From an uncultured Candidatus Saccharibacteria bacterium (GTDB lineage: Bacteria > Patescibacteriota > Doudnabacteria > UBA920): a stretch of 64,000 nucleotides of DNA. Location of the stretch: assembly GCA_964372905.1 (NCBI GenBank), contig CAYJQY010000001.1, positions 8,777 through 72,776 of the forward strand. Direction: 5' to 3'. A program made the position numbers and the translations under genes. Below, piece after piece: positions 8,567 to 58,190 of the stretch. Under the pieces are notes generated by a model. It did no database searches. It was given only the letters and a program-made list of their open reading frames with translations, and was not told the origin of the DNA. How positions within the stretch are numbered: position 1 is the first letter of the stretch; each line of letters starts with the position of its first letter.

Positions 8567-9634
8567 CTATGGTATTTCCTCTACTGCCTGCTCGGATTTG
8601 AGCAATTCCCCCGCTTCCAGGGCCTGCGTTTCCGTAACCTTGGCTTCTTCAAGTTGCAAAGTGGCCGCGTTGGCAATGTTGGATTTTAATTTTAGGAAGT
8701 CGTTGCTGACCGCGCCCATGGTGTTGCCCGCGTTTTTTATGTGCGTGGACAGAACTTCCAGGTTTTTGCCGAACTTATCGCTTTCGCGCTTGATGCCGGC
8801 AATCATATCTAAAATCCGTTCGGCCGCCTCGTTAATCTGCTGGCCGCGCAGGGCAATGTGAATTATTTGGAGATGATGATACAGTGTGTTAGGGCTGACA
8901 AAGTAAACTTTTTTTTCGCGGCCGTAGCCCACAATGCCGGTATCGTCTATAACTTCGCTGAACACGCCCTCGCTGGGAATGTACATGAGCGCAAAATCAA
9001 AGGTGCCCTCCTGGGGCAAAATGTACTTTTTGTGAATTTCGTCCACGCGCTTTTTTACATCTTTCAAAAAGGCTCGTTTCAAATTTTCCGCCGCTTCATC
9101 TTCGTTGGCTTCCTTATAGAGCCGGAAGTTCTCCATGGAAAATTTGCTGTCTATGGGCAGGATTTTTTCGCCCACGCGCACAATTACATCCACGGCCTCG
9201 CCGCTCTTGAATTTATGCTGGGTTGCGTAAGCGGATTTGGGCAAAACTTGGGACAGCATTCCTTCCAGCATTTCCTCGCCAAAGTTCCCGCGCAATTTGG
9301 GGCTGGCCAGGGTTTCGCTAAGGCGGCGAATATCCGGGCCAACCTGGGAGACGCTGCCCAATTCCCGGGTTAGGCCGGCAATAATGCGGCTGGCATTGTC
9401 CAGCCGCTCGCCAATGGCCCGGTTGGTATCGCTGATGCTTTTTTCCATGCTCTGGCGCGTGGAGTTGGTATCCTGCTTTATCTCCTTCATCCACTCCATC
9501 ATTACTTTCATCGGTTCGTTGTCGGCTTGCTGGCCAGCTTTTCGCTTCAGGGCCATCAAAAAAAACAGCAGTATCCCAAAACCGGCCACAAGCAAGACAA
9601 TTATTCCTATGAGGGCATTTATCATACATGCCAA
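8567..9634 (-). CDS. rmuC: DNA recombination protein RmuC
   Basis: N-terminal TM helix, coiled-coil, then the RmuC core (GNFGEEMLEGMLSQVLPKSAYATQ...VDVIVRVGEKILPIDSKF). Confidence 0.75.
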   Translation of the reverse strand: MACMINALIGIIVLLVAGFGILLFFLMALKRKAGQQADNEPMKVMMEWMKEIKQDTNSTRQSMEKSISDTNRAIGERLDNASRIIAGLTRELGSVSQVGPDIRRLSETLASPKLRGNFGEEMLEGMLSQVLPKSAYATQHKFKSGEAVDVIVRVGEKILPIDSKFSMENFRLYKEANEDEAAENLKRAFLKDVKKRVDEIHKKYILPQEGTFDFALMYIPSEGVFSEVIDDTGIVGYGREKKVYFVSPNTLYHHLQIIHIALRGQQINEAAERILDMIAGIKRESDKFGKNLEVLSTHIKNAGNTMGAVSNDFLKLKSNIANAATLQLEEAKVTETQALEAGELLKSEQAVEEIP

Positions 9635-9724
9635 TTATAGCAGATAATACAGGGGCAACCAACGAGGCGACGCGAGGCGTGACATTTCTACTTTGCTTTA
9701 GCACGAGGGCACGAGGCGAGTCTA

Positions 9725-9753
9725 TTGATTTTATTTTACCGTTTGTTTATACT
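9725..9753 (+). promoter_or_regulatory. candidate sigma70-type promoter for the tRNA-fMet/tRNA cluster
   Basis: TTGATT (9725-9730), 17 nt spacer, TATACT (9748-9753), about 35 nt upstream of tRNA position 1. A short palindrome tgccctat-gtt-atagggca (9761-9779) lies between the -10 element and the tRNA. Confidence 0.35.
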
Positions 9754-9821
9754 AGTAGTGCCCTATGTTATAGGGCATTAGCACTCGTCGCGGGATGGAG
9801 CAATTGGCAGCTCGCAAGGCT

Positions 9822-10470
9822 CAATCTCGAGGTAAGCTCTTTTTCATGAGTACTAAGTTAAAAGGAGATATAGCAGAGCAAGCCGCCGTTTTAAGGTTAT
9901 TGGAACTCGGCTGGGGTGTCTCAAAACCAATTGGCGACAGACTCCCCTACGATCTAATAGCCGATGTAGATGGCAAGCTTATTAGGCTTCAAGTTAAATC
10001 CGCTTGGTTTAACGCTTTAGATCAAAATTATTGTATTGATGTGAGGCGCACCAAAACAAATCGGCGGCAGATGGTTAGAAGCTTATATGGCGATAAAGAC
10101 TTTGATTTTGCTTTGGTATATCTTCCGGAAAAACGAATCTTTTATGTTTTTCCAATCAATGTATTCATAGGCTTCGGTAGCACATTGTCTTTGGTAGAAG
10201 CTGATAAACGCCAGCGCAAGCCAAAGTCCGCTAACTACCGGGAGGCATTCAAGCTTATCTCACAATGGGCTGCGCCAAGGGCAACCTTGGCGTGATTCCT
10301 GTCAAATTCGGGGAAGCCTCTAGCGGTGGTAATCCCGAGCCAAGGCCCGATGGACATCGGGCAAGGTGTAGAGACTTAATGGCAGGCATCCCGCCGTTCG
10401 GCGGGATGAAGAGAAAGTCCAGACCACAAACCTAGCTTATTACTAGGACAACGAAAGTTGTAGTGGTATG
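9822..10470 (+). mobile_element. group I intron (IC3-like, tRNA-intron type) carrying an ORF
   Basis: The 3' core (10298-10470) reads GUCAAAUUCGGGGAAGCCUCUAGCGG...CCGAGCCAAGG...AAGGUGUAGAGACUUAAUGGCAGG. This parallels the Azoarcus pre-tRNA-Ile intron (GUCAAAUUCGGCGAAACCUAAGCG...CCGAGCCAAGC...AAGGUGUAGAGACUAGACGGCACC), i.e. the P3/P4/P6/P7 elements. A P2-like hairpin CGCCAAGG-GCAA-CCUUGGCG lies at 10264-10283. Confidence 0.7.
9846..10295 (+). CDS. intron-encoded PD-(D/E)xK family putative homing endonuclease
   Basis: 149 aa from ATG 9846 (the ORF-track start at 9795 would read through the tRNA exon). Motif GDIAEQAAVLRLLELGWGVSKPIGDRLPYDLIADVDGKLIRLQVKS, an E...PD-(D/E)xK arrangement like Hjc-type restriction-fold nucleases. 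The position inside a tRNA-fMet group I intron parallels I-Ssp6803I. Confidence 0.6.
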   Translation: MSTKLKGDIAEQAAVLRLLELGWGVSKPIGDRLPYDLIADVDGKLIRLQVKSAWFNALDQNYCIDVRRTKTNRRQMVRSLYGDKDFDFALVYLPEKRIFYVFPINVFIGFGSTLSLVEADKRQRKPKSANYREAFKLISQWAAPRATLA

Positions 10471-10586
10471 CATAACCTTGAGGTTCCGGGTTCGAATCCC
10501 GGTCCCGCAACCAAAAAATTTGAAACTCGTGACAGAGATCGTTTGATCAAAGCCCCTCTGTCCGAGGGGTCTTTGATTGGCCGCGC

Positions 10587-10663
10587 GCCGGCGTAGCTCA
10601 GTTGGTTAGAGCGAGGGACTCATAAGCCCTAGGTCGCAGGTTCGATCCCTGCCGCCGGTACCA
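10587..10663 (+). tRNA. tRNA-Met(CAU), elongator type (could alternatively be lysidine-modified tRNA-Ile2)
   Basis: GCCGGCG-TA-GCTC-AGTTGGTTA-GAGC...CTCATAA...GGTC-GCAGG-TTCGATC-CCTGC-CGCCGGT-A-CCA. Normal 1-72 pairing and a C11:G24 pair, so not an initiator. Confidence 0.8.
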
Positions 10664-10701: not shown

Positions 10702-10780
10702 GGACCGGTAGTGTAGTCTGGTTTAACACGCCTCCCTGTCACGGAGGAGATCGCGGGTTCGAATCCCGTCCGGTCCGCCA
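10702..10780 (+). tRNA. tRNA-Asp(GUC)
   Basis: GGACCGG-TA-GTGT-AGTCTGGTTTA-ACAC-G-CCTCC-CTGTCAC-GGAGG...TTCGAAT...CCGGTCC-G-CCA. Confidence 0.85.
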
Positions 10781-26250: not shown

Positions 26251-27861
26251 CTAGGACTGGGGGCTATCCGAGGCCACCTGGCTTTTATACACCAATTTTT
26301 TTAGAAACGATAACAGCTGCTTGGTTTCGTGCAGCCCGATCAAGTACCCGATTACAGCGTAAATAATAATCCCCGCGGCAACGGCCGTACCGGATTGGAT
26401 TAAGATTCCGAGCGTGGTGCGCGTATTAACCAGCGGGGCTATGGCATAAAGAGTCCCGTAGGATACAACACCCATACCTATAGTGGCCAGCAGAATCTTG
26501 CTTATGGCCGCGATTAAGGTCAGATCAAATTTAGATATTTTCTGGGCAGAGTGCACCGCTTCGCGGCCGAGCTGCCGCCGCAAAACGATGAACAACATCA
26601 AGCAATTTATAATGCTGGCTATGGTAAAACCCAGAGCTACCCCCACTACGCCAAACCGCATGGCAAAGATATAAGAAAGGGTCGCGTTGAACGCCAAAGT
26701 GATAAGACCGATGATGACCGGCAATTTGGTATTATGCCGGGCGTAAAAAGCCCGGGCCAGCAGCGGTATCAGACTTTGGCTGAACAGGGAAAAAGTAAAC
26801 ACTCCGAAAGTGTTAAAAGTTAAAATCGTGTTGTCCCAGTTGAATTGGCCGTGGCCAAGAATCAGCCGGACAATATGGGCTCGCAACAAAAGCATTAGAA
26901 TGGATAAAGGAATGATGAAAAATAAAACCTGGATTATGGCTTCACCCAGAGCGTCCAAATAGCCCTTGCCGTCGCGTTGATTATAGCGTTCGCTTAAAAC
27001 CGGAAAGACGGCAATTGCCGTGGACACGGCAATAATTCCCAGCGGCGCGGCCTGCAGATCGTTGGCTAAGTTAAAAACAGAGATCGAACCAGCGGCCAAA
27101 ACCGATCCTATGACTGAAGCAATGAGCAGGCTTATCAGCGATGGATCCAAACTGAAAATTCTGGGAATGAACAAAGTAAAAATCGCCCGCACTCCGCTGT
27201 GTTTCCAAAGCAGGACGGGCGACCAAGTAAATCCCCCCCGAATGACCCCGGGAATTTGTATCAGAAAGTGGAGCGCGGCCCCGACAATCACGCCCAGACC
27301 AAGACCGAGCAACCCCAGGCGCGGATACAAGACCTCCAGTCCGAAAATAATGCCCAGGTTGTAAAAAATTGGCGCGAGATTAACCAGAAAGAAACGTTTA
27401 AAGGACATAAGAATGCTCGATATAAGATTCGACAGCGTAAACAAGAGCGGCGATACCAGCATCAATCTGGTTAAGCTTACTGTGGCCTCAAGTTTCGCTT
27501 CATCAAAACCCGGCAGTAATGCGTTCATAATGGGACGAGCGGCGAAAAACAAAATCAAACACAGCGCAAACATAATAATCATGGCCGCGTTGAGCACGCT
27601 ACTGGCCACACGGTTGGCTTCTTCACGGTCCCGGGCCCAATAGCCGCTAAAGACCGGAATAAATGCCGCTGACAAAGTCCCTAAAATGAGCAAATTAAAA
27701 ATGAGGTCCGGGATGCGGAACGAGGCGTAGTAGATATCCAGGATGTCGCCGGCGCCAAAGCGGCTGGCAAAAAGCTCCAGCCGAAGTAATCCCACCAATC
27801 GGGAAAACAGCGTGAGTACGGCAATGAGCGCGGCCGCCCGCCGGATACTGAAATTGCCCAT
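26251..27861 (-). CDS. murJ: lipid II flippase MurJ
   Basis: 536 aa polytopic MOP-family protein; the N-terminus MGNFSIRRAAALIAVLTLFSRLVGLLR...FGAGD is typical of MviN/MurJ. Confidence 0.85.
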   Translation of the reverse strand: MGNFSIRRAAALIAVLTLFSRLVGLLRLELFASRFGAGDILDIYYASFRIPDLIFNLLILGTLSAAFIPVFSGYWARDREEANRVASSVLNAAMIIMFALCLILFFAARPIMNALLPGFDEAKLEATVSLTRLMLVSPLLFTLSNLISSILMSFKRFFLVNLAPIFYNLGIIFGLEVLYPRLGLLGLGLGVIVGAALHFLIQIPGVIRGGFTWSPVLLWKHSGVRAIFTLFIPRIFSLDPSLISLLIASVIGSVLAAGSISVFNLANDLQAAPLGIIAVSTAIAVFPVLSERYNQRDGKGYLDALGEAIIQVLFFIIPLSILMLLLRAHIVRLILGHGQFNWDNTILTFNTFGVFTFSLFSQSLIPLLARAFYARHNTKLPVIIGLITLAFNATLSYIFAMRFGVVGVALGFTIASIINCLMLFIVLRRQLGREAVHSAQKISKFDLTLIAAISKILLATIGMGVVSYGTLYAIAPLVNTRTTLGILIQSGTAVAAGIIIYAVIGYLIGLHETKQLLSFLKKLVYKSQVASDSPQS

Positions 27862-30143
27862 TATTGATTTTCCTCCGGGCGATCAAAGACCAAACCGAAG
27901 AAGTAATCGCGATTAAACTCAAGCGCGGGTAAAGTCAGCGCGCCTCCGGAAACTTCGGCGTCAAAATTTTTCCAAGCAATGGCGCGGGGCAAAAATTCCA
28001 CCTTATAAGAAAAACTTTGATTCACGGCGCCAGGCTGTTTTTGCAGCAATAAACTATGATGATCAAGCTGATTGAGTTCAAAGGGAAGGCGATAGGTTAT
28101 CGTAACGGTTTGACTGGCCTGCCCCGCAACTTTAACCCAGTTACCGAACACGGTGTTGCCGTTCTCTTCGCTGATAAGCGTATTAGACAGGACGTGACGC
28201 ACCGAGCCATTTTCCAAAGCATAAACGTCCGGGTCAGTTTGCTGGTCTTCTCCTAGCCGGTCCGGCAGCGGCATTGAACTGAATCCCTGTGTACTGATGA
28301 GCGCCGCGCCTTTGGGCACGTAAATGCGCATGAAGCTTAAATTTTCCAAGCCCGGCTGCGCCGGCAACGGGTTAATCCGCGTAACGGTCAGCGTATTGAC
28401 GATGGCGCCGCTGTGGTCAATAACGCTGTCTAACGATATTTTTTGTTCGATGGCCAGGTCGGTTTTTGTCCCGCCGAGGTTACTATTAACCACAGCTAAA
28501 TAATCTCTGTCCGTGGCGCGGACTTCCCCATTCCAATTAAAAGCCGCAAACTGCGCTTGCACGCCCGGATCCCGCGAATAAAACATTATATGCTTGGCAG
28601 CCAAGTTGCGTTGCAGCGTCTCAAAGACCAATAGCCATTGATCAGCAGATAAACTGTTTAGGCGCTCCAGCAAAGCCGGAGTAAAATCGGCCAGCATTTG
28701 CTTGGGTTGGTTTTCAACTTTGTCATAGTTGACAGACGTTTCCAGCTGGGTCAATTCAACGAAATTTTCCGCGGTCAATGTGACATTGTATTTAGACAAG
28801 TTTACCGGACCGGTAATTTTGAGCAGGTCCACCATGACCGTTGGTGTGATGGCTATAACCAAATCCGGGGTTTCCCCGCCTTCTTTCTCGTAGAAGCTGA
28901 TGATTTTTTTGACCGAGGTCGGAAAGTCAAAAAACCAATTACTGTCCCTCATATACCAGCGGTTGTTCACGGCCCAAAGCGGCCGCGGCGGCGTTATGGA
29001 TTCCTTGAGTTGCCCGTCGAGGGCGTAAATACTCTCAATTTTCATATTGCCGATGGCGCCGTTGCTCAAACTGATGTCGCCATAAGTGCCGATGAAGCCC
29101 CCGGTGGCGCGCAGTTCATTATTGTTTTGGGATAGCAGCAGAATCGTCTTGTGGCCGCTACTCAAAGTTGCCACAATTTTGATAACCTCGCTAAGCGTGG
29201 CCAGTCCGGTTCGGGCCGCGGCAACTTGATTTTTCGCTTGCGCAAAGATTAATCTTTGATCGCCCGGCACACTGCTTTCGTTCACGCGCGCCAGATTCTC
29301 TTCAGCCTGCCTTACATTATTGAGTGCCTGGGCAAGACTGGCGTTAAGGGCGGTCAGGGTTTTCTCGGCTCCGCCCGGGGCGCTTAACCCCTGGGCACCT
29401 AAATGCAAGCTCTCCCAGTCTTGGTAAAACCTCGTCAGATCAAGTCCGGCCTGGCCTAGTGTCCGGACCGCCTTGATGAGTTCCTCGCCGTCGCGCTTTT
29501 GGGGCAGGACATTGAGCAAGCCATTCATAATTCCGCCCACGGCCTTAAGGTCACGCTGGGTTTGATCGAAACTGGAAATAGCCTCGGCAAAGCGCACGCC
29601 GGCCAAATCAACAGACTGATCTTTTAATAATTTCTCGGCTGCGGACAGCTGGCCTAAACCCCTTTGAGCCGAACCGGCTAGGCGATCTCTGATGTCCCAG
29701 GCACGGCCAACCAGTTGAACCGATTGTAAGCCCCCTACGGTCAAGCCAATAAGAAAAATAAACACGACCAGGGCTAGACGAAACTCCCGATTTGAAAGTT
29801 TCCCCAATTTTGACCGGCTGATAACGAACCAGCGGCGCCATTGCCGCGATTGGTCAGCATCGAAAGAAAAAGATCGTAATGTTTTCGCGCGTTGTCCGCG
29901 AGATGCGCGTCCACCGAGCAGCAAGGTCAAAACGTAGACTAGCTCACGGGCAGCAACCAGGAGTCCCAGGCCGACATAGTAGCAAACAATAAAGGCAATA
30001 TACCCTACCGCTTTGGCCACTAAAATTATTTCGGGCCAGACCTTGCCAGCCATCAATATTACACTCCTGCGTTGCCTTAGTGCAGTAACGCTTTGATAGA
30101 GCGAGTGATGCAAATATAGAGGGATTTTTTTAGACCGTTTCAT
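27861..30143 (-). CDS. large membrane-anchored DUF4012-like protein
   Basis: N-terminal TM helix. Motif ELRATGGFIGTYGDISLSNG, characteristic of the DUF4012 family, which often neighbours cell-wall genes. Confidence 0.5.
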   Translation of the reverse strand: MKRSKKIPLYLHHSLYQSVTALRQRRSVILMAGKVWPEIILVAKAVGYIAFIVCYYVGLGLLVAARELVYVLTLLLGGRASRGQRAKTLRSFSFDADQSRQWRRWFVISRSKLGKLSNREFRLALVVFIFLIGLTVGGLQSVQLVGRAWDIRDRLAGSAQRGLGQLSAAEKLLKDQSVDLAGVRFAEAISSFDQTQRDLKAVGGIMNGLLNVLPQKRDGEELIKAVRTLGQAGLDLTRFYQDWESLHLGAQGLSAPGGAEKTLTALNASLAQALNNVRQAEENLARVNESSVPGDQRLIFAQAKNQVAAARTGLATLSEVIKIVATLSSGHKTILLLSQNNNELRATGGFIGTYGDISLSNGAIGNMKIESIYALDGQLKESITPPRPLWAVNNRWYMRDSNWFFDFPTSVKKIISFYEKEGGETPDLVIAITPTVMVDLLKITGPVNLSKYNVTLTAENFVELTQLETSVNYDKVENQPKQMLADFTPALLERLNSLSADQWLLVFETLQRNLAAKHIMFYSRDPGVQAQFAAFNWNGEVRATDRDYLAVVNSNLGGTKTDLAIEQKISLDSVIDHSGAIVNTLTVTRINPLPAQPGLENLSFMRIYVPKGAALISTQGFSSMPLPDRLGEDQQTDPDVYALENGSVRHVLSNTLISEENGNTVFGNWVKVAGQASQTVTITYRLPFELNQLDHHSLLLQKQPGAVNQSFSYKVEFLPRAIAWKNFDAEVSGGALTLPALEFNRDYFFGLVFDRPEENQ

Positions 30144-36852: not shown

Positions 36853-38721
36853 CTAAAATTTATAGACTTCGCCGGGTTTAATAACCGTAGCTTGTTGTGG
36901 AGTGGCTGATTCGGCGGCTTTAGGGCTGGGAATTGTGGGCGGTGAGGGAGCAGGCGGAGAAACTGGAGCCGGGGTTTGGGCCGGGGTTCGGTCGGAAGAC
37001 GCAGCCGTTGCCGGCGGAACGGATTTTGGGGGCTGACTTTTTTGCTGCTCCAATTGTCTGACCGTGTTCCACACAGGATGCTCTATTTTTCTTGGCTTAT
37101 CTTGCTGCTGTCTTGGTTTCTGACGTTTGCCGCGCTTGCCGTCGAAGCGCGGGTTGGGAGTCGGGCGGTCCATAACTGGTCTGCGCTCCGCAGGTCGCTC
37201 AAAAACAGATTGAGTACGTTTAATTGGCGCCGGAGGTGAAGGTACTTGGCGCGCCGGTTCCTTAACAGCTGGCGCAGGACTTGCCTCTAATTCAACTTCT
37301 GTTTCCCGAACTGCGGCCTGCTGAACTTGCGGCTGCTGTGCCGGCGCCAGCGGCGTTTGGGCTGCCTCAATTTGCTCCGCTTGATCCTGCCCGACCACCA
37401 AGGCAGTCTGTTCATGAAATTCCGCGCCCATCCAGCGGGAAATTTTTCCTTCCACCTCGGCCGCCGGATTGGCGTAGCGCTCCCGCGAAACTTTAATAAT
37501 CTTCTCCGCGTTGCCGGTACGCCAGGCCTCGTTGGGCGGCAAAGTCACGGCTGAAAAGGGGTCGCTGGCAATGCCGTTTATCATCAATTTTAAGATAATA
37601 TTATATTTCGGCAAGTTAACAAGGTCGGTCATGGTAAAAATCGGGCCGACTTCCTTTTCCAAAACCTCGGCGTCTTCCGCGCCGACGCGAAACGATACTA
37701 TGGTGCCTACGTTGCCGAACACCGCGTCGCGAACTTTAGTATTGCCCCGCTCTGGCACCAGTTGGCCGATATACTGATGGCCTATGACTAAATTAAGATG
37801 ATACTTGCGCGCCTCGCTCAAAATAGTAGCGAAACTGTCAGTGACAAAATTTTGGAATTCGTCGACATAGAGGTAAAAATCCTGACGATCTTCCTCGCGG
37901 GGAATGTCGACCCGGGATAGCGCGGCCAACTGCAGCTTGGTAACTAGCATTGAACCAAGCAATTCGGAGTTATCTTCCCCAACCCGGCCCTTAGACAAGT
38001 CCACCAACAAAATCTTTTTTTCGTCCATAATTTCCCGCAAATCAATCGTGGAGCGGGTCTGACCGACAATATTGCGGATAATAGCCGAGGACAAAAACTG
38101 CCCGACCTTGTTCTGAATCGGCGCTATGGCTTCGGTGCGGTACTTTTCGTTATAGTTGGCAAACTCATCAGTCCAAAAAGCCCGGACCATGGGGTCCTTA
38201 ATGTTGTCGACAATTTTTTTGCGGTATTTTTTATCGATATACATGCGGGCAATCCCCAACATAGTATTGCCGGGGCTGTCGAGCAAAGCCAGAATCGTGT
38301 TATTCAAAATGTACTCCATACGGGCCGACCACAGGTTTGCCCAAATTTTCGTAAACACGCCCATCAAGCCCGAAGCCACTAAGTGCTTATACTTTGGATC
38401 CACGGCTTCCAGGATGTTGAAGGCAATAGGGTGTTCCAGATCGGCCGGATTGAAATAAATCACGTCGTTGATCCTGTGGTTCGGGATAAAGCTCATTATT
38501 TTGGTAATGGAGTCTCCATGCGGGTCGATAAAGCACACGCCATGCCCATTATAGATGTCCTGGATAACCATGTTTTCCATCATGGTGGTTTTGCCCATGC
38601 CAGTCTTACCGATAACATAAAGGTGCCGGCGGCGGTCATCGGCTTTAATGCCAAAGGGCACCTCTTTGTTGCGGAAGTTGGTTTTAGCAAAAAATGTGAT
38701 TTGTTTATTGAGTTCGGTCAT
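36853..38721 (-). CDS. VirD4/TraG/TraD-like type IV coupling protein ATPase with long Pro/Gln-rich C-terminal tail
   Basis: Walker A IGKTGMGKTT followed by a DPHGD motif (cf. DPKGE of TraG/VirD4). Later Walker B/aspartate box motifs (LLVDL, VDEFQNF). About 200 aa low-complexity P/Q/A tail. Confidence 0.6.
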   Translation of the reverse strand: MTELNKQITFFAKTNFRNKEVPFGIKADDRRRHLYVIGKTGMGKTTMMENMVIQDIYNGHGVCFIDPHGDSITKIMSFIPNHRINDVIYFNPADLEHPIAFNILEAVDPKYKHLVASGLMGVFTKIWANLWSARMEYILNNTILALLDSPGNTMLGIARMYIDKKYRKKIVDNIKDPMVRAFWTDEFANYNEKYRTEAIAPIQNKVGQFLSSAIIRNIVGQTRSTIDLREIMDEKKILLVDLSKGRVGEDNSELLGSMLVTKLQLAALSRVDIPREEDRQDFYLYVDEFQNFVTDSFATILSEARKYHLNLVIGHQYIGQLVPERGNTKVRDAVFGNVGTIVSFRVGAEDAEVLEKEVGPIFTMTDLVNLPKYNIILKLMINGIASDPFSAVTLPPNEAWRTGNAEKIIKVSRERYANPAAEVEGKISRWMGAEFHEQTALVVGQDQAEQIEAAQTPLAPAQQPQVQQAAVRETEVELEASPAPAVKEPARQVPSPPAPIKRTQSVFERPAERRPVMDRPTPNPRFDGKRGKRQKPRQQQDKPRKIEHPVWNTVRQLEQQKSQPPKSVPPATAASSDRTPAQTPAPVSPPAPSPPTIPSPKAAESATPQQATVIKPGEVYKF

Positions 38722-57817: not shown

Positions 57818-58190
57818 TGAGGCTCCAAGCAAACTCGTAAGCCGAATTCTGTTTTTAAATAATCATCTATCTGGGCGGGTCATTGCTGGCACGCTCGTCG
57901 CAGCCTACCTAACTTGGCTTTGCACTCAAGTAAGAGTTTTGCCGTTTCACCTCTGGCGTTGCCGTCAGAGTTCATCCCGCCATGCCTTGCGGCAAAAGCG
58001 GCATGCCTTAACCTTTCGGGTCGGGCGTCACTGTTCGCATCTCGCGGATTACTCCGGGCGGGTGTTACCCGCTACCTGCGTTGATATCTCTATAGAGGGT
58101 ATCAACCGAGTGTTCGGACTTTCCTCCCCTGACTGACTGCAATAATTTGCCGCCGGCCAGGAGCGATTATTCGATTTGCTTGAAGCCCAC
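57818..58190 (-). ncRNA. rnpB: RNase P RNA, bacterial type A
   Basis: The minus-strand read contains GGAGGAAAGUCCGAAC (P4 5' strand), AGGUAGCGGGUAACACCCGCC, GGUGAAACGG and GUAGGCUGC...GCCAGCAAUGACC...AGAUAGAUGAUUA...ACAGAAUUCGGCUUAC (P4 3' strand). These closely parallel the E. coli M1 RNA blocks. P1 is formed by GGGCUUCAAGCAAAUCG and CGAGUUUGCUUGGAGCCUC. Confidence 0.8.

Follow-up and report, generated by a model that had tools for sequence, protein, structure and literature searches.

The closest described counterpart of the element considered here is the group I intron in the initiator tRNA gene (tRNA-fMet) of Synechocystis sp. PCC 6803, which encodes the homing endonuclease I-Ssp6803I and was reportedly described by Biniszkiewicz in 1994 and by Bonocora and Shub in 2001. 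Subgroup IC3 also includes tRNA introns that carry no open reading frame (ORF), such as those in tRNA-Ile of Azoarcus and in tRNA-Leu of Anabaena and other cyanobacteria. A 64,000-nt stretch of contig CAYJQY010000001.1 (assembly GCA_964372905.1), referred to below in its full length as the window, contains at 9789-10513 on the plus strand a tRNA-fMet(CAU) gene split into two halves with 649 nt between them. [quoted passage not shown] Selfish elements of this kind are known, although almost all descriptions to date come from cyanobacteria, and what is new here is the Patescibacteria host.

The Synechocystis intron is 655 nt long and its I-Ssp6803I ORF encodes 150 aa (PMC1995217; a further reference for this system is PMC3384342). 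In a survey of 4,934 complete genomes, Nakagawa et al. 2026 described 33/34 as the standard insertion site in tRNA-fMet and PF11645 as the family of its homing-endonuclease gene (HEG); PF11645-bearing tRNA-fMet introns were present in 2 of these 4,934 genomes, both cyanobacterial (PMC13011429). According to the main text of that survey, none of the Patescibacteria tRNA introns is of subgroup IC. The Patescibacteria tRNA introns it describes belong to subgroup IA, interrupt tRNA-Asn or tRNA-Asp (or tRNA-Thr) at 35/36, and have HEGs of the HNH type (PF01844) (PMC13011429). A related strategy is collaborative homing, in which a free-standing endonuclease is encoded beside an ORF-less intron, as exemplified by F-CphI and psbA in cyanophage S-PM2 and by mobE and I-TevIII in T4 (PMC3984707, PMC6083498, PMC2790892).

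The split initiator tRNA gene

The initial annotation, made from the sequence alone, had proposed two tRNA halves about 650 nt apart. Both halves lie exactly at the coordinates it gave, and the distance between them is 649 nt.

9789-9821, plus strand: tRNA-fMet 5' exon, positions 1-33 (acceptor, D arm, 5' anticodon stem, C32 and U33), from the sequence and an ARAGORN intron search
10471-10513, plus strand: tRNA-fMet 3' exon, positions 34-76 (CAU anticodon, 3' anticodon stem, variable loop, T arm, acceptor and ACCA), from the sequence and an ARAGORN intron search

In its default mode, ARAGORN calls no tRNA at 9789-10513 of the window. When long anticodon-loop introns are allowed, the same program reports a tRNA-Met(cat) that spans 9789-10513 and is interrupted at position 34 by an intron of 649 nt. 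Joining 9821 to 10471 produces a 76-nt cloverleaf with the anticodon CAU and an encoded CCA, and this joined tRNA carries both of the initiator hallmarks that had been noticed at first reading. C1 (9789) stands opposite A72 (10509) in a 1:72 mismatch of the initiator type, next to pairs 2-7:66-71 that are all Watson-Crick, and the D stem contains A11:U24 (A9799:U9812). Elongator tRNAs have Y11:R24 in the D stem, and the neighbouring tRNA-Met has C11:G24.

The anticodon stem departs from the initiator pattern of three G-C pairs at 29-31:39-41, as it consists of A29:U41, G30:C40 and G31:C39 (au/GC/GC). Initiators with this stem are documented in nature, in alpha-proteobacteria and some mycoplasmas, and of the three pairs it is G30-C40 that is essential (PMC5389676). 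A29:U41 (9817/10478 in the window) lowers strict conformity with the initiator type and leaves the tRNA-fMet assignment standing. It is common to all seven related loci of the Patescibacteria clade with a called tRNA (L002-L004, L006, L010, L011 and L026), and L018 is the sole Patescibacteria locus with another stem. No description of this initiator variant in Patescibacteria was found in the literature.

That the interrupted gene is an elongator tRNA-Met or a tRNA-Ile2(CAU), not an initiator, is highly improbable. Its anticodon stem has two G-C pairs where the canonical initiator has three, and Table S5 of the survey lists a tRNA-Ile2(CAT) of Bacillota_B with an IC3 intron at 33/34 (PMC13011429). 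Against this, C1xA72 and A11:U24 are initiator marks, au/GC/GC with the essential G30-C40 retained is a documented initiator variant (PMC5389676), and the exons share homology with those of tRNA-fMet at all other loci. A separate elongator-type CAU tRNA, with G1.U72 and C11:G24, already follows 74 nt downstream (10587-10663). It is the only other CAU tRNA within the window, so the separate intact tRNA-fMet that had been named as a possible refutation of the annotation is absent from these 64 kb.

The group I intron and its RNA fold

The intron matches the Rfam group I model RF00028 (Intron_gpI) at 10251-10463 with 72.3 bits, well above the gathering score of 50 (E=2e-16, model positions 1-253). 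Three candidate junctions yield an identical RNA, because CA stands at both borders, and the initial annotation had accordingly treated its U33/C34 splice site as uncertain. The uncertainty can be settled. Only 9821/9822 with 10470/10471 combines an exon-terminal U with an intron-terminal G. The alternatives C34/A35 and A35/U36 were rejected: they break this U/G rule, and the relatives L042, L045 and L078 cannot have them, since their introns begin with T and the 33/34 junction is therefore unambiguous there. In all 74 of 74 related split genes the 5' exon ends in ...GGCT and the intron-final G is followed by CATAACC.

9822-10470, plus strand: group I intron, 649 nt, IC3-like, at tRNA position 33/34, last base G10470 as omega-G; from Rfam RF00028 and covariation in 62 relatives
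9818-9823, plus strand: 5' strand of P1, GGCU/CA, with the splice-site wobble U9821.G10268; paired by hand with 10266-10271, the same in relatives, and found in minimum-free-energy folds of ORF-less relatives
10266-10271, plus strand: internal guide sequence UGGGCU, which pairs with the 5' exon in P1; paired by hand
9829-9838, plus strand: 5' strand of P1a, the P1 extension (GAGGUAAGCU), which pairs with 10252-10261 over 10 bp and closes the loop that holds the ORF
10252-10261, plus strand: 3' strand of P1a (AGCUUAUCUC), which also codes for Lys-Leu-Ile-Ser of the ORF; from comparison of loci and the reading frame
10273-10292, plus strand: P2 hairpin, 8 bp, GCAA loop, overlapped by the last ORF codons; 8/8 pairs compensatory, 96.6% of cells paired
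10298-10466, plus strand: catalytic core, from pair counts on the 62-sequence alignment, with the following helices
10298-10303/10381-10386: P3, pseudoknot helix, 6/6 pairs covary
10308-13/10333-38: P4, almost invariant
10317-18/10328-29: P5, 2 bp supported
10340-41/10365-66: P6, pairing written by hand and counted on the alignment
10345-51/10356-62: P6a, every pair covaries
10371,10373-76/10416-20: P7, fully invariant and hence without covariation signal
10388-95/10400-07: P8, outer half supported
10424-27/10463-66: P9, 2/4 pairs covary
10431-35/10443-47: P9a, every pair covaries
10449-52/10457-60: P9b, GAAA loop, every pair covaries

Helices P2 to P9b were written by hand and then counted on an alignment of 62 related introns. 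In this alignment 92.9% of cells are paired, compared with at most 44% when the partners are slid, and 41 of the 57 pairs show compensatory changes; none of 500 shuffles reaches the observed pairing values. The invariance of P7 and near-invariance of P4 are as expected for the catalytic centre. The core signatures recognised at first reading are present as GUCAAAUUCGGGGAA (10301-10315), CCGAGCCAAG (10335-10344) and AAGGUGUAGAGACU (10363-10376), and the GCAA-capped hairpin described there as P2-like is P2 itself, with all eight pairs compensatory in relatives, most of which have a GAAA cap. The guide bases GGGC (10267-10270) are invariant in 62/62 aligned introns. P1a covaries between loci (GUGA/UCAC, GCAG/CUGC, GCGA/UCGC, GCGG/CCGC and others) and is recovered by free-energy folding both of ORF-less relatives and of the window intron with its ORF deleted (z=-5.6). 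AUG at 10265-10267 can also pair with CAU of the 3' exon (10471-10473) to form P10, a hand-assigned helix of 3 bp only.

Parts of the hand-drawn fold were discarded. Of P5 and P8 as first drawn, P5 holds for only 2 bp and the inner 3-4 pairs of P8 fail in relatives (66.5% paired); these additional pairs may be specific to the window or misaligned. The first hairpin of the Rfam match (10255-10275) was likewise rejected as P1, because its bases constitute the 3' strand of P1a, the guide and the start of P2, and pair with 9818-9838 across the ORF.

The assignment to IC3 is supported indirectly. The intron aligns helix for helix with the intron of L078, which resembles that of GCF_001988955.1, and tRNA-fMet 33/34 introns with near-identical cores, GCF_001988955.1 among them, are typed IC3 in Table S5 of the survey (PMC13011429).

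The homing-endonuclease ORF

9846-10295, plus strand: homing-endonuclease ORF, 149 aa plus stop, PD-(D/E)XK, I-Ssp6803I family; from Pfam PF11645 and PDB 2OST

The intron encodes a close homologue of I-Ssp6803I, as the initial annotation had suspected. The product matches Pfam PF11645 (PDDEXK_5) with 159.9 bits, compared with a cut-off of 26.1, over profile positions 1-137 of 138. It also matches the I-Ssp6803I structure 2OST with E=1.9e-55 over residues 2-144, at about 60% identity over 143 residues, and its N-terminus aligns with the M-x-TKLKGD start of homologues. No NCBIfam model matches the 149-aa ORF. The E...PD...QVK motif read from the sequence is real and comprises E11, P34-Y35-D36 and Q49-V50-K51. 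D8, E11, Y35, D36, Q49 and K51, all intact in the window ORF, do not vary among 79 homologues, which argues for selection on nuclease activity. Four of these, E11, D36, Q49 and K51, are the presumed catalytic residues, with roles reportedly described by Zhao et al. 2007. In the 2OST structure a Q takes the place of the E11 that every natural homologue has, as would be expected if the crystallised construct had been engineered to be inactive.

The ORF does not simply occupy the 5' part of the intron, as had been supposed, but is placed in the loop of the extended P1 helix within 9822-10470 and overlaps P1a, the guide and P2. Its last ~45 nt, which end with the stop codon TGA at 10293-10295, double as the 3' strand of P1a, the guide sequence and P2, and the guide is read within the Gln-Trp-Ala codons at 10263-10271. 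This dual coding at the 3' end of the ORF is common to all intron-borne relatives.

The public (NCBI) annotation calls a nuclease of 166 aa that begins at an in-frame ATG at 9795, within the tRNA 5' exon, in place of the homology-supported start at 9846. The split tRNA was thus evidently unrecognised when the contig was annotated.

The Patescibacteria members of the family form a nuclease clade with substitutions that are seldom or never seen elsewhere, among them N66V beside the RRTKTNRR motif and W135F at an otherwise invariant position. Together with the A29:U41 targets, these changes are consistent with, and no proof of, a retuned target specificity. By homology, the nuclease would be expected to cut the gene into which its own intron is inserted.

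Host and genomic context

The tRNA setting implied by the initial annotation was cyanobacterial or proteobacterial. The host is a member of the Patescibacteria. Window genes are those of an ordinary chromosome (SecA, SecD, MurC, ATP synthase, LepA, PheS and RmuC), and all close SecA matches with taxon names are Patescibacteria. The nearest loci keep either the order tRNA-fMet, tRNA-Met, tRNA-Asp or the upstream RmuC, which in the window is 65% identical to that of a Saccharibacteria metagenome-assembled genome (MAG). The exons of the window, including the CAAGG/CCTTG anticodon stem, are of a type found only in Saccharibacteria/Patescibacteria loci. These data identify the host as a Patescibacteria chromosome, most likely from Saccharibacteria.

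Since the source is a metagenome-assembled contig, an intron-bearing tRNA of another organism could in principle have been joined to a Patescibacteria contig by an assembly or binning artefact. Such an origin is almost certainly wrong: the exons are themselves of the Patescibacteria type, on either flank the gene order agrees with that of independent Saccharibacteria MAGs and metagenome contigs, an independent Logan assembly matches 9632-10636 at 100% identity, and the same element occurs in five further Saccharibacteria/Patescibacteria MAGs. Logan run ERR4904391 includes the locus.

The split gene is surrounded by the following features.

9725-9753, plus strand: predicted sigma-70-like promoter TTGATT-17-TATACT, ~35 nt upstream of the tRNA 5' end; consensus match only, 9/12
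9756-9780, plus strand: leader hairpin that follows the -10 element and precedes the tRNA (TAGTGCCCTAT / ATAGGGCATTA); inverted repeat with 11-nt arms, 91% complementary
10552-10570, plus strand: terminator-like hairpin downstream of the split tRNA, from a consensus scan, with a putative terminator function
10587-10663, plus strand: elongator-type tRNA-Met(CAU), from a tRNA search; order kept in relatives with and without the intron
10702-10780, plus strand: tRNA-Asp, from a tRNA search; order kept in relatives with and without the intron

Other features of the window stand apart from the intron. In the 150-nt spacer between the divergently oriented start of RmuC and the promoter-like site, CGAGGCG is found in three perfect copies, clustered as part of a group of four ACGAGG(C/G)-like units (9663-9718); window-wide, CGAGGCG shows no enrichment, with 48 occurrences observed and 49.8 expected. 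A bacterial class A RNase P RNA at 57822-58182 (minus strand) scores 103.5 against an Rfam gathering score of 100, with several helices non-canonical or missing, and its divergent form is in keeping with a Patescibacteria host. A VirD4/TraD-like coupling-protein homologue with weak NCBIfam matches (36853-38718, minus strand) and a 759-aa DUF4012 protein (27861-30140, minus strand) could belong to an apparatus for type IV secretion or DNA transfer.

Relatives and spread of the element

A protein-seeded scan of one genome per species found a relative of the ORF in 223 species genomes from ~15 phyla, of which 80 loci were kept for comparison and are designated here by L numbers. The CAU tRNA is split by an intron at 74 of the 80, and at 58, from ~15 phyla, the ORF lies inside the 33/34 intron of this tRNA. 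The element family is far more widespread than complete genomes suggested. The initial annotation had called the combination rare, which is true of complete genomes (2/4,934) and false for MAG-rich collections (223 species). Nearest to the window are L002, at 82.7% nucleotide identity, and L003-L006, at 71-77%, all from Saccharibacteria or Patescibacteria MAGs.

At 16 loci the nuclease gene stands outside the intron (L039, L043, L047, L058, L059, L061, L062, L064, L066, L068, L071, L076, L077, L078, L079 and L081). These fall into three separate nuclease clades, from cyanobacteria, Anaerolineales and Bacteroidota. Each has a tRNA-fMet with an ORF-less intron of 243-305 nt at 33/34, then a terminator-like hairpin, and the nuclease ORF starts on the same strand ~65-140 nt past the tRNA end (~800 nt in L043); in the sequences as fetched, the tRNA lies at about 1040-1440 and the ORF begins at 1501. 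In the cyanobacterial ORF-less introns, the P1a loop retains sequence resembling the 3' end of the ORF, and some of the free-standing ORFs retain a '...LILQWA' tail. The layout resembles phage collaborative homing, of which no report at tRNA-fMet was found in the literature.

Individual relatives also vary in length and completeness. The introns of L006 (781 nt) and L030 (777 nt) have ~130 extra nt in the ribozyme part, and that of L017 (602 nt) is devoid of the P5-P6 region. In simple translation the ORFs of L026 and L042 stop after 48 and 31 codons, and these copies are possibly decaying.

Empty sites and mobility

A scan of metagenomes recovered the exact intron-less junction on 35 contigs. 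Several of these are syntenic with the window, with RmuC upstream and tRNA-Met and tRNA-Asp downstream; their 76-nt tRNA-fMet is unbroken, and a nuclease gene is absent. Among relatives, one locus therefore occurs in both filled and empty form, and the empty sites would be natural targets for homing. One empty-site locus, L111, has its tRNA-fMet at 2299-2374 and its tRNA-Met at 1590-1666 on the minus strand of the sequence as fetched, and the spacer holds an 83-aa GIY-YIG ORF (Pfam PF01541, 54.9 bits) followed by a duplicated 3' fragment of tRNA-fMet (…GGCTCATAATCC…TTCGAGTCCGGGTCCCGCAACCA). This appears to be a different nuclease-bearing element on the same tRNA gene.

The syntenic loci also bear on whether the split gene works. 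It could be a decaying pseudogene that splices poorly, with a separate intact tRNA-fMet elsewhere in the genome doing the work, and in favour of this one may cite the 64 kb of genome in view and the signs of decay in relatives (L017 without P5-P6; apparently truncated ORFs in L026 and L042). Decay of the window copy is nevertheless very unlikely. Its helices, U.G wobble, omega-G, P4/P7 core and full ORF are all intact, the exons form a perfect cloverleaf, and promoter-like and terminator-like signals of its own flank the gene. In addition, an uninterrupted tRNA-fMet holds the same slot of the tRNA-fMet, tRNA-Met, tRNA-Asp cluster in syntenic relatives.

A further alternative accepts self-splicing and denies movement: the element would be immobile and inherited vertically within Patescibacteria, and the nuclease would be kept for other reasons, being domesticated, maturase-like or recently immobilised. 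A neighbour-joining tree of the nucleases runs mostly by phylum and places the window inside a distinct, coherent Patescibacteria clade. All members of this clade share the A29:U41 target and the clade-specific substitutions, as expected for long residence, and the tail of the ORF is locked into P1a, the guide and P2, which by itself constrains part of the ORF. These points favour immobility, which is still unlikely given the orthologous empty sites in related genomes and the presumed active-site residues invariant across 79 homologues. The nuclease is, moreover, more similar than other proteins of the same genome pairs: between the window and the L004 genome it is 79% identical and SecA 69%, and between the window and L005 it is 72% identical and RmuC 65%. 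The I-Ssp6803I family is not known to have a maturase role, which also weighs against an immobile element.

Proposed mechanism and implications

The favoured interpretation remains that of a mobile intron. The split gene would be transcribed as a single precursor in which P1 forms between the exon end GGCU/CA and the guide UGGGCU and places a U.G wobble at the splice site, alongside the P3-P9 core and the terminal G. The intron would then remove itself by two-step, guanosine-initiated transesterification that joins the exons, with P10 (CAU/AUG) aligning the 3' exon, and the product would be a functional 76-nt tRNA-fMet. The extended P1 loop would supply the 149-aa PD-(D/E)XK endonuclease. By analogy with I-Ssp6803I, this enzyme would cut an intron-less tRNA-fMet in the pseudo-palindromic region of the anticodon stem-loop (GCTCGCAAGGCT^CATAACCTTGAGG), and repair from an intron-bearing copy would place the intron and its ORF into the empty site. 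The intron-bearing allele would be immune because the intron splits the target.

Several considerations weigh against this interpretation. Splicing and cleavage, as well as the specificity of the enzyme and any ongoing mobility, are inferred from conservation and from the occurrence of filled and empty sites. The view covers 64 kb of the genome, and a second intact tRNA-fMet elsewhere is possible. The Shine-Dalgarno-like GAGG 13 nt upstream of the ATG is weak and buried in P1a. The phylum-wise tree means that spread could be largely old and vertical within phyla, with no ongoing homing. Finally, a search of phage sequences revealed no close relative of the nuclease: a scan of viral contigs gave none, and INPHARED yielded only distant PDDEXK_5-like proteins at no more than 43% identity, which offers no candidate vehicle for transfer between phyla.

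A broader scenario is tentative and somewhat doubtful. It would regard the I-Ssp6803I-type tRNA-fMet intron as an actively homing element that crossed into at least 12 phyla, including the genome-reduced Patescibacteria, where the gene it occupies would probably be the only one for an initiator tRNA. There the nuclease would have been retuned to the au/GC/GC stem, with N66V and W135F as candidate changes. In three other lineages it would have left the intron to become a free-standing neighbour, which would amount to collaborative homing in cellular chromosomes.

If the split tRNA-fMet is the only initiator gene, the ribozyme would be essential for all translation. The element corrects the picture of Patescibacteria tRNA introns that emerged from the 2026 survey, in which all were IA introns at 35/36 with HNH enzymes only. 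It also matters for annotation: default finders miss the split tRNA while a 166-aa ORF is called from within its exon, and genomes of this kind will consequently seem to have no initiator tRNA. The Patescibacteria clade may also be useful in enzymology, as a naturally occurring variant in specificity of a homing endonuclease whose structure is solved, with defined base-pair differences in its target. These findings leave the understanding of the mode of action of such elements unchanged.

Comparison with known systems

The window intron shares with that of Synechocystis its host gene, tRNA-fMet, and its 33/34 site, and the two are close in size (649 nt and 149 aa versus 655 nt and 150 aa). Their nucleases belong to one protein family, with ~60% identity over 143 residues. 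The placement of the ORF and its overlap with the ribozyme are as in the cyanobacterial relatives L037, L044 and L073, and the core helices of the window and of I-Ssp6803I-type introns align and covary together. The differences lie in the host, which is a member of the Patescibacteria and not a cyanobacterium, in the target half-sites, which are CAAGG/CCTTG with A29:U41 in the window and TCGGG/CCCGA in Synechocystis, and in the N66V and W135F substitutions of the Patescibacteria clade.

With the ORF-less IC3 tRNA introns, the window intron has in common the core motifs GUCAAAUUCGGGGAA, CCGAGCCAAG, AAGGUGUAGAGACU and GAAAGUCCAGACC and the P1-P9 layout with P2 and a three-way P9. Unlike them, it carries a 450-nt ORF in the P1 loop, and it is inserted at 33/34, whereas introns of tRNA-Leu lie at 34/35 and those of tRNA-Ile and tRNA-Arg at 36/37. 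The Patescibacteria introns of Nakagawa et al. agree with it in phylum, in their position in the anticodon loop, in the fact that standard tRNA finders miss the gene and, for some of them, in the presence of a HEG. They differ in that the window intron is IC3-like, sits at 33/34 of tRNA-fMet and carries a nuclease of PF11645.

The published cases of collaborative homing concern phages and other nuclease families, unlike the 16 chromosomal loci with a free-standing nuclease described above. It is these 16 related loci, and not the window, that match the collaborative layout. The ORF of the window is intronic, which makes the element a classical composite mobile intron.

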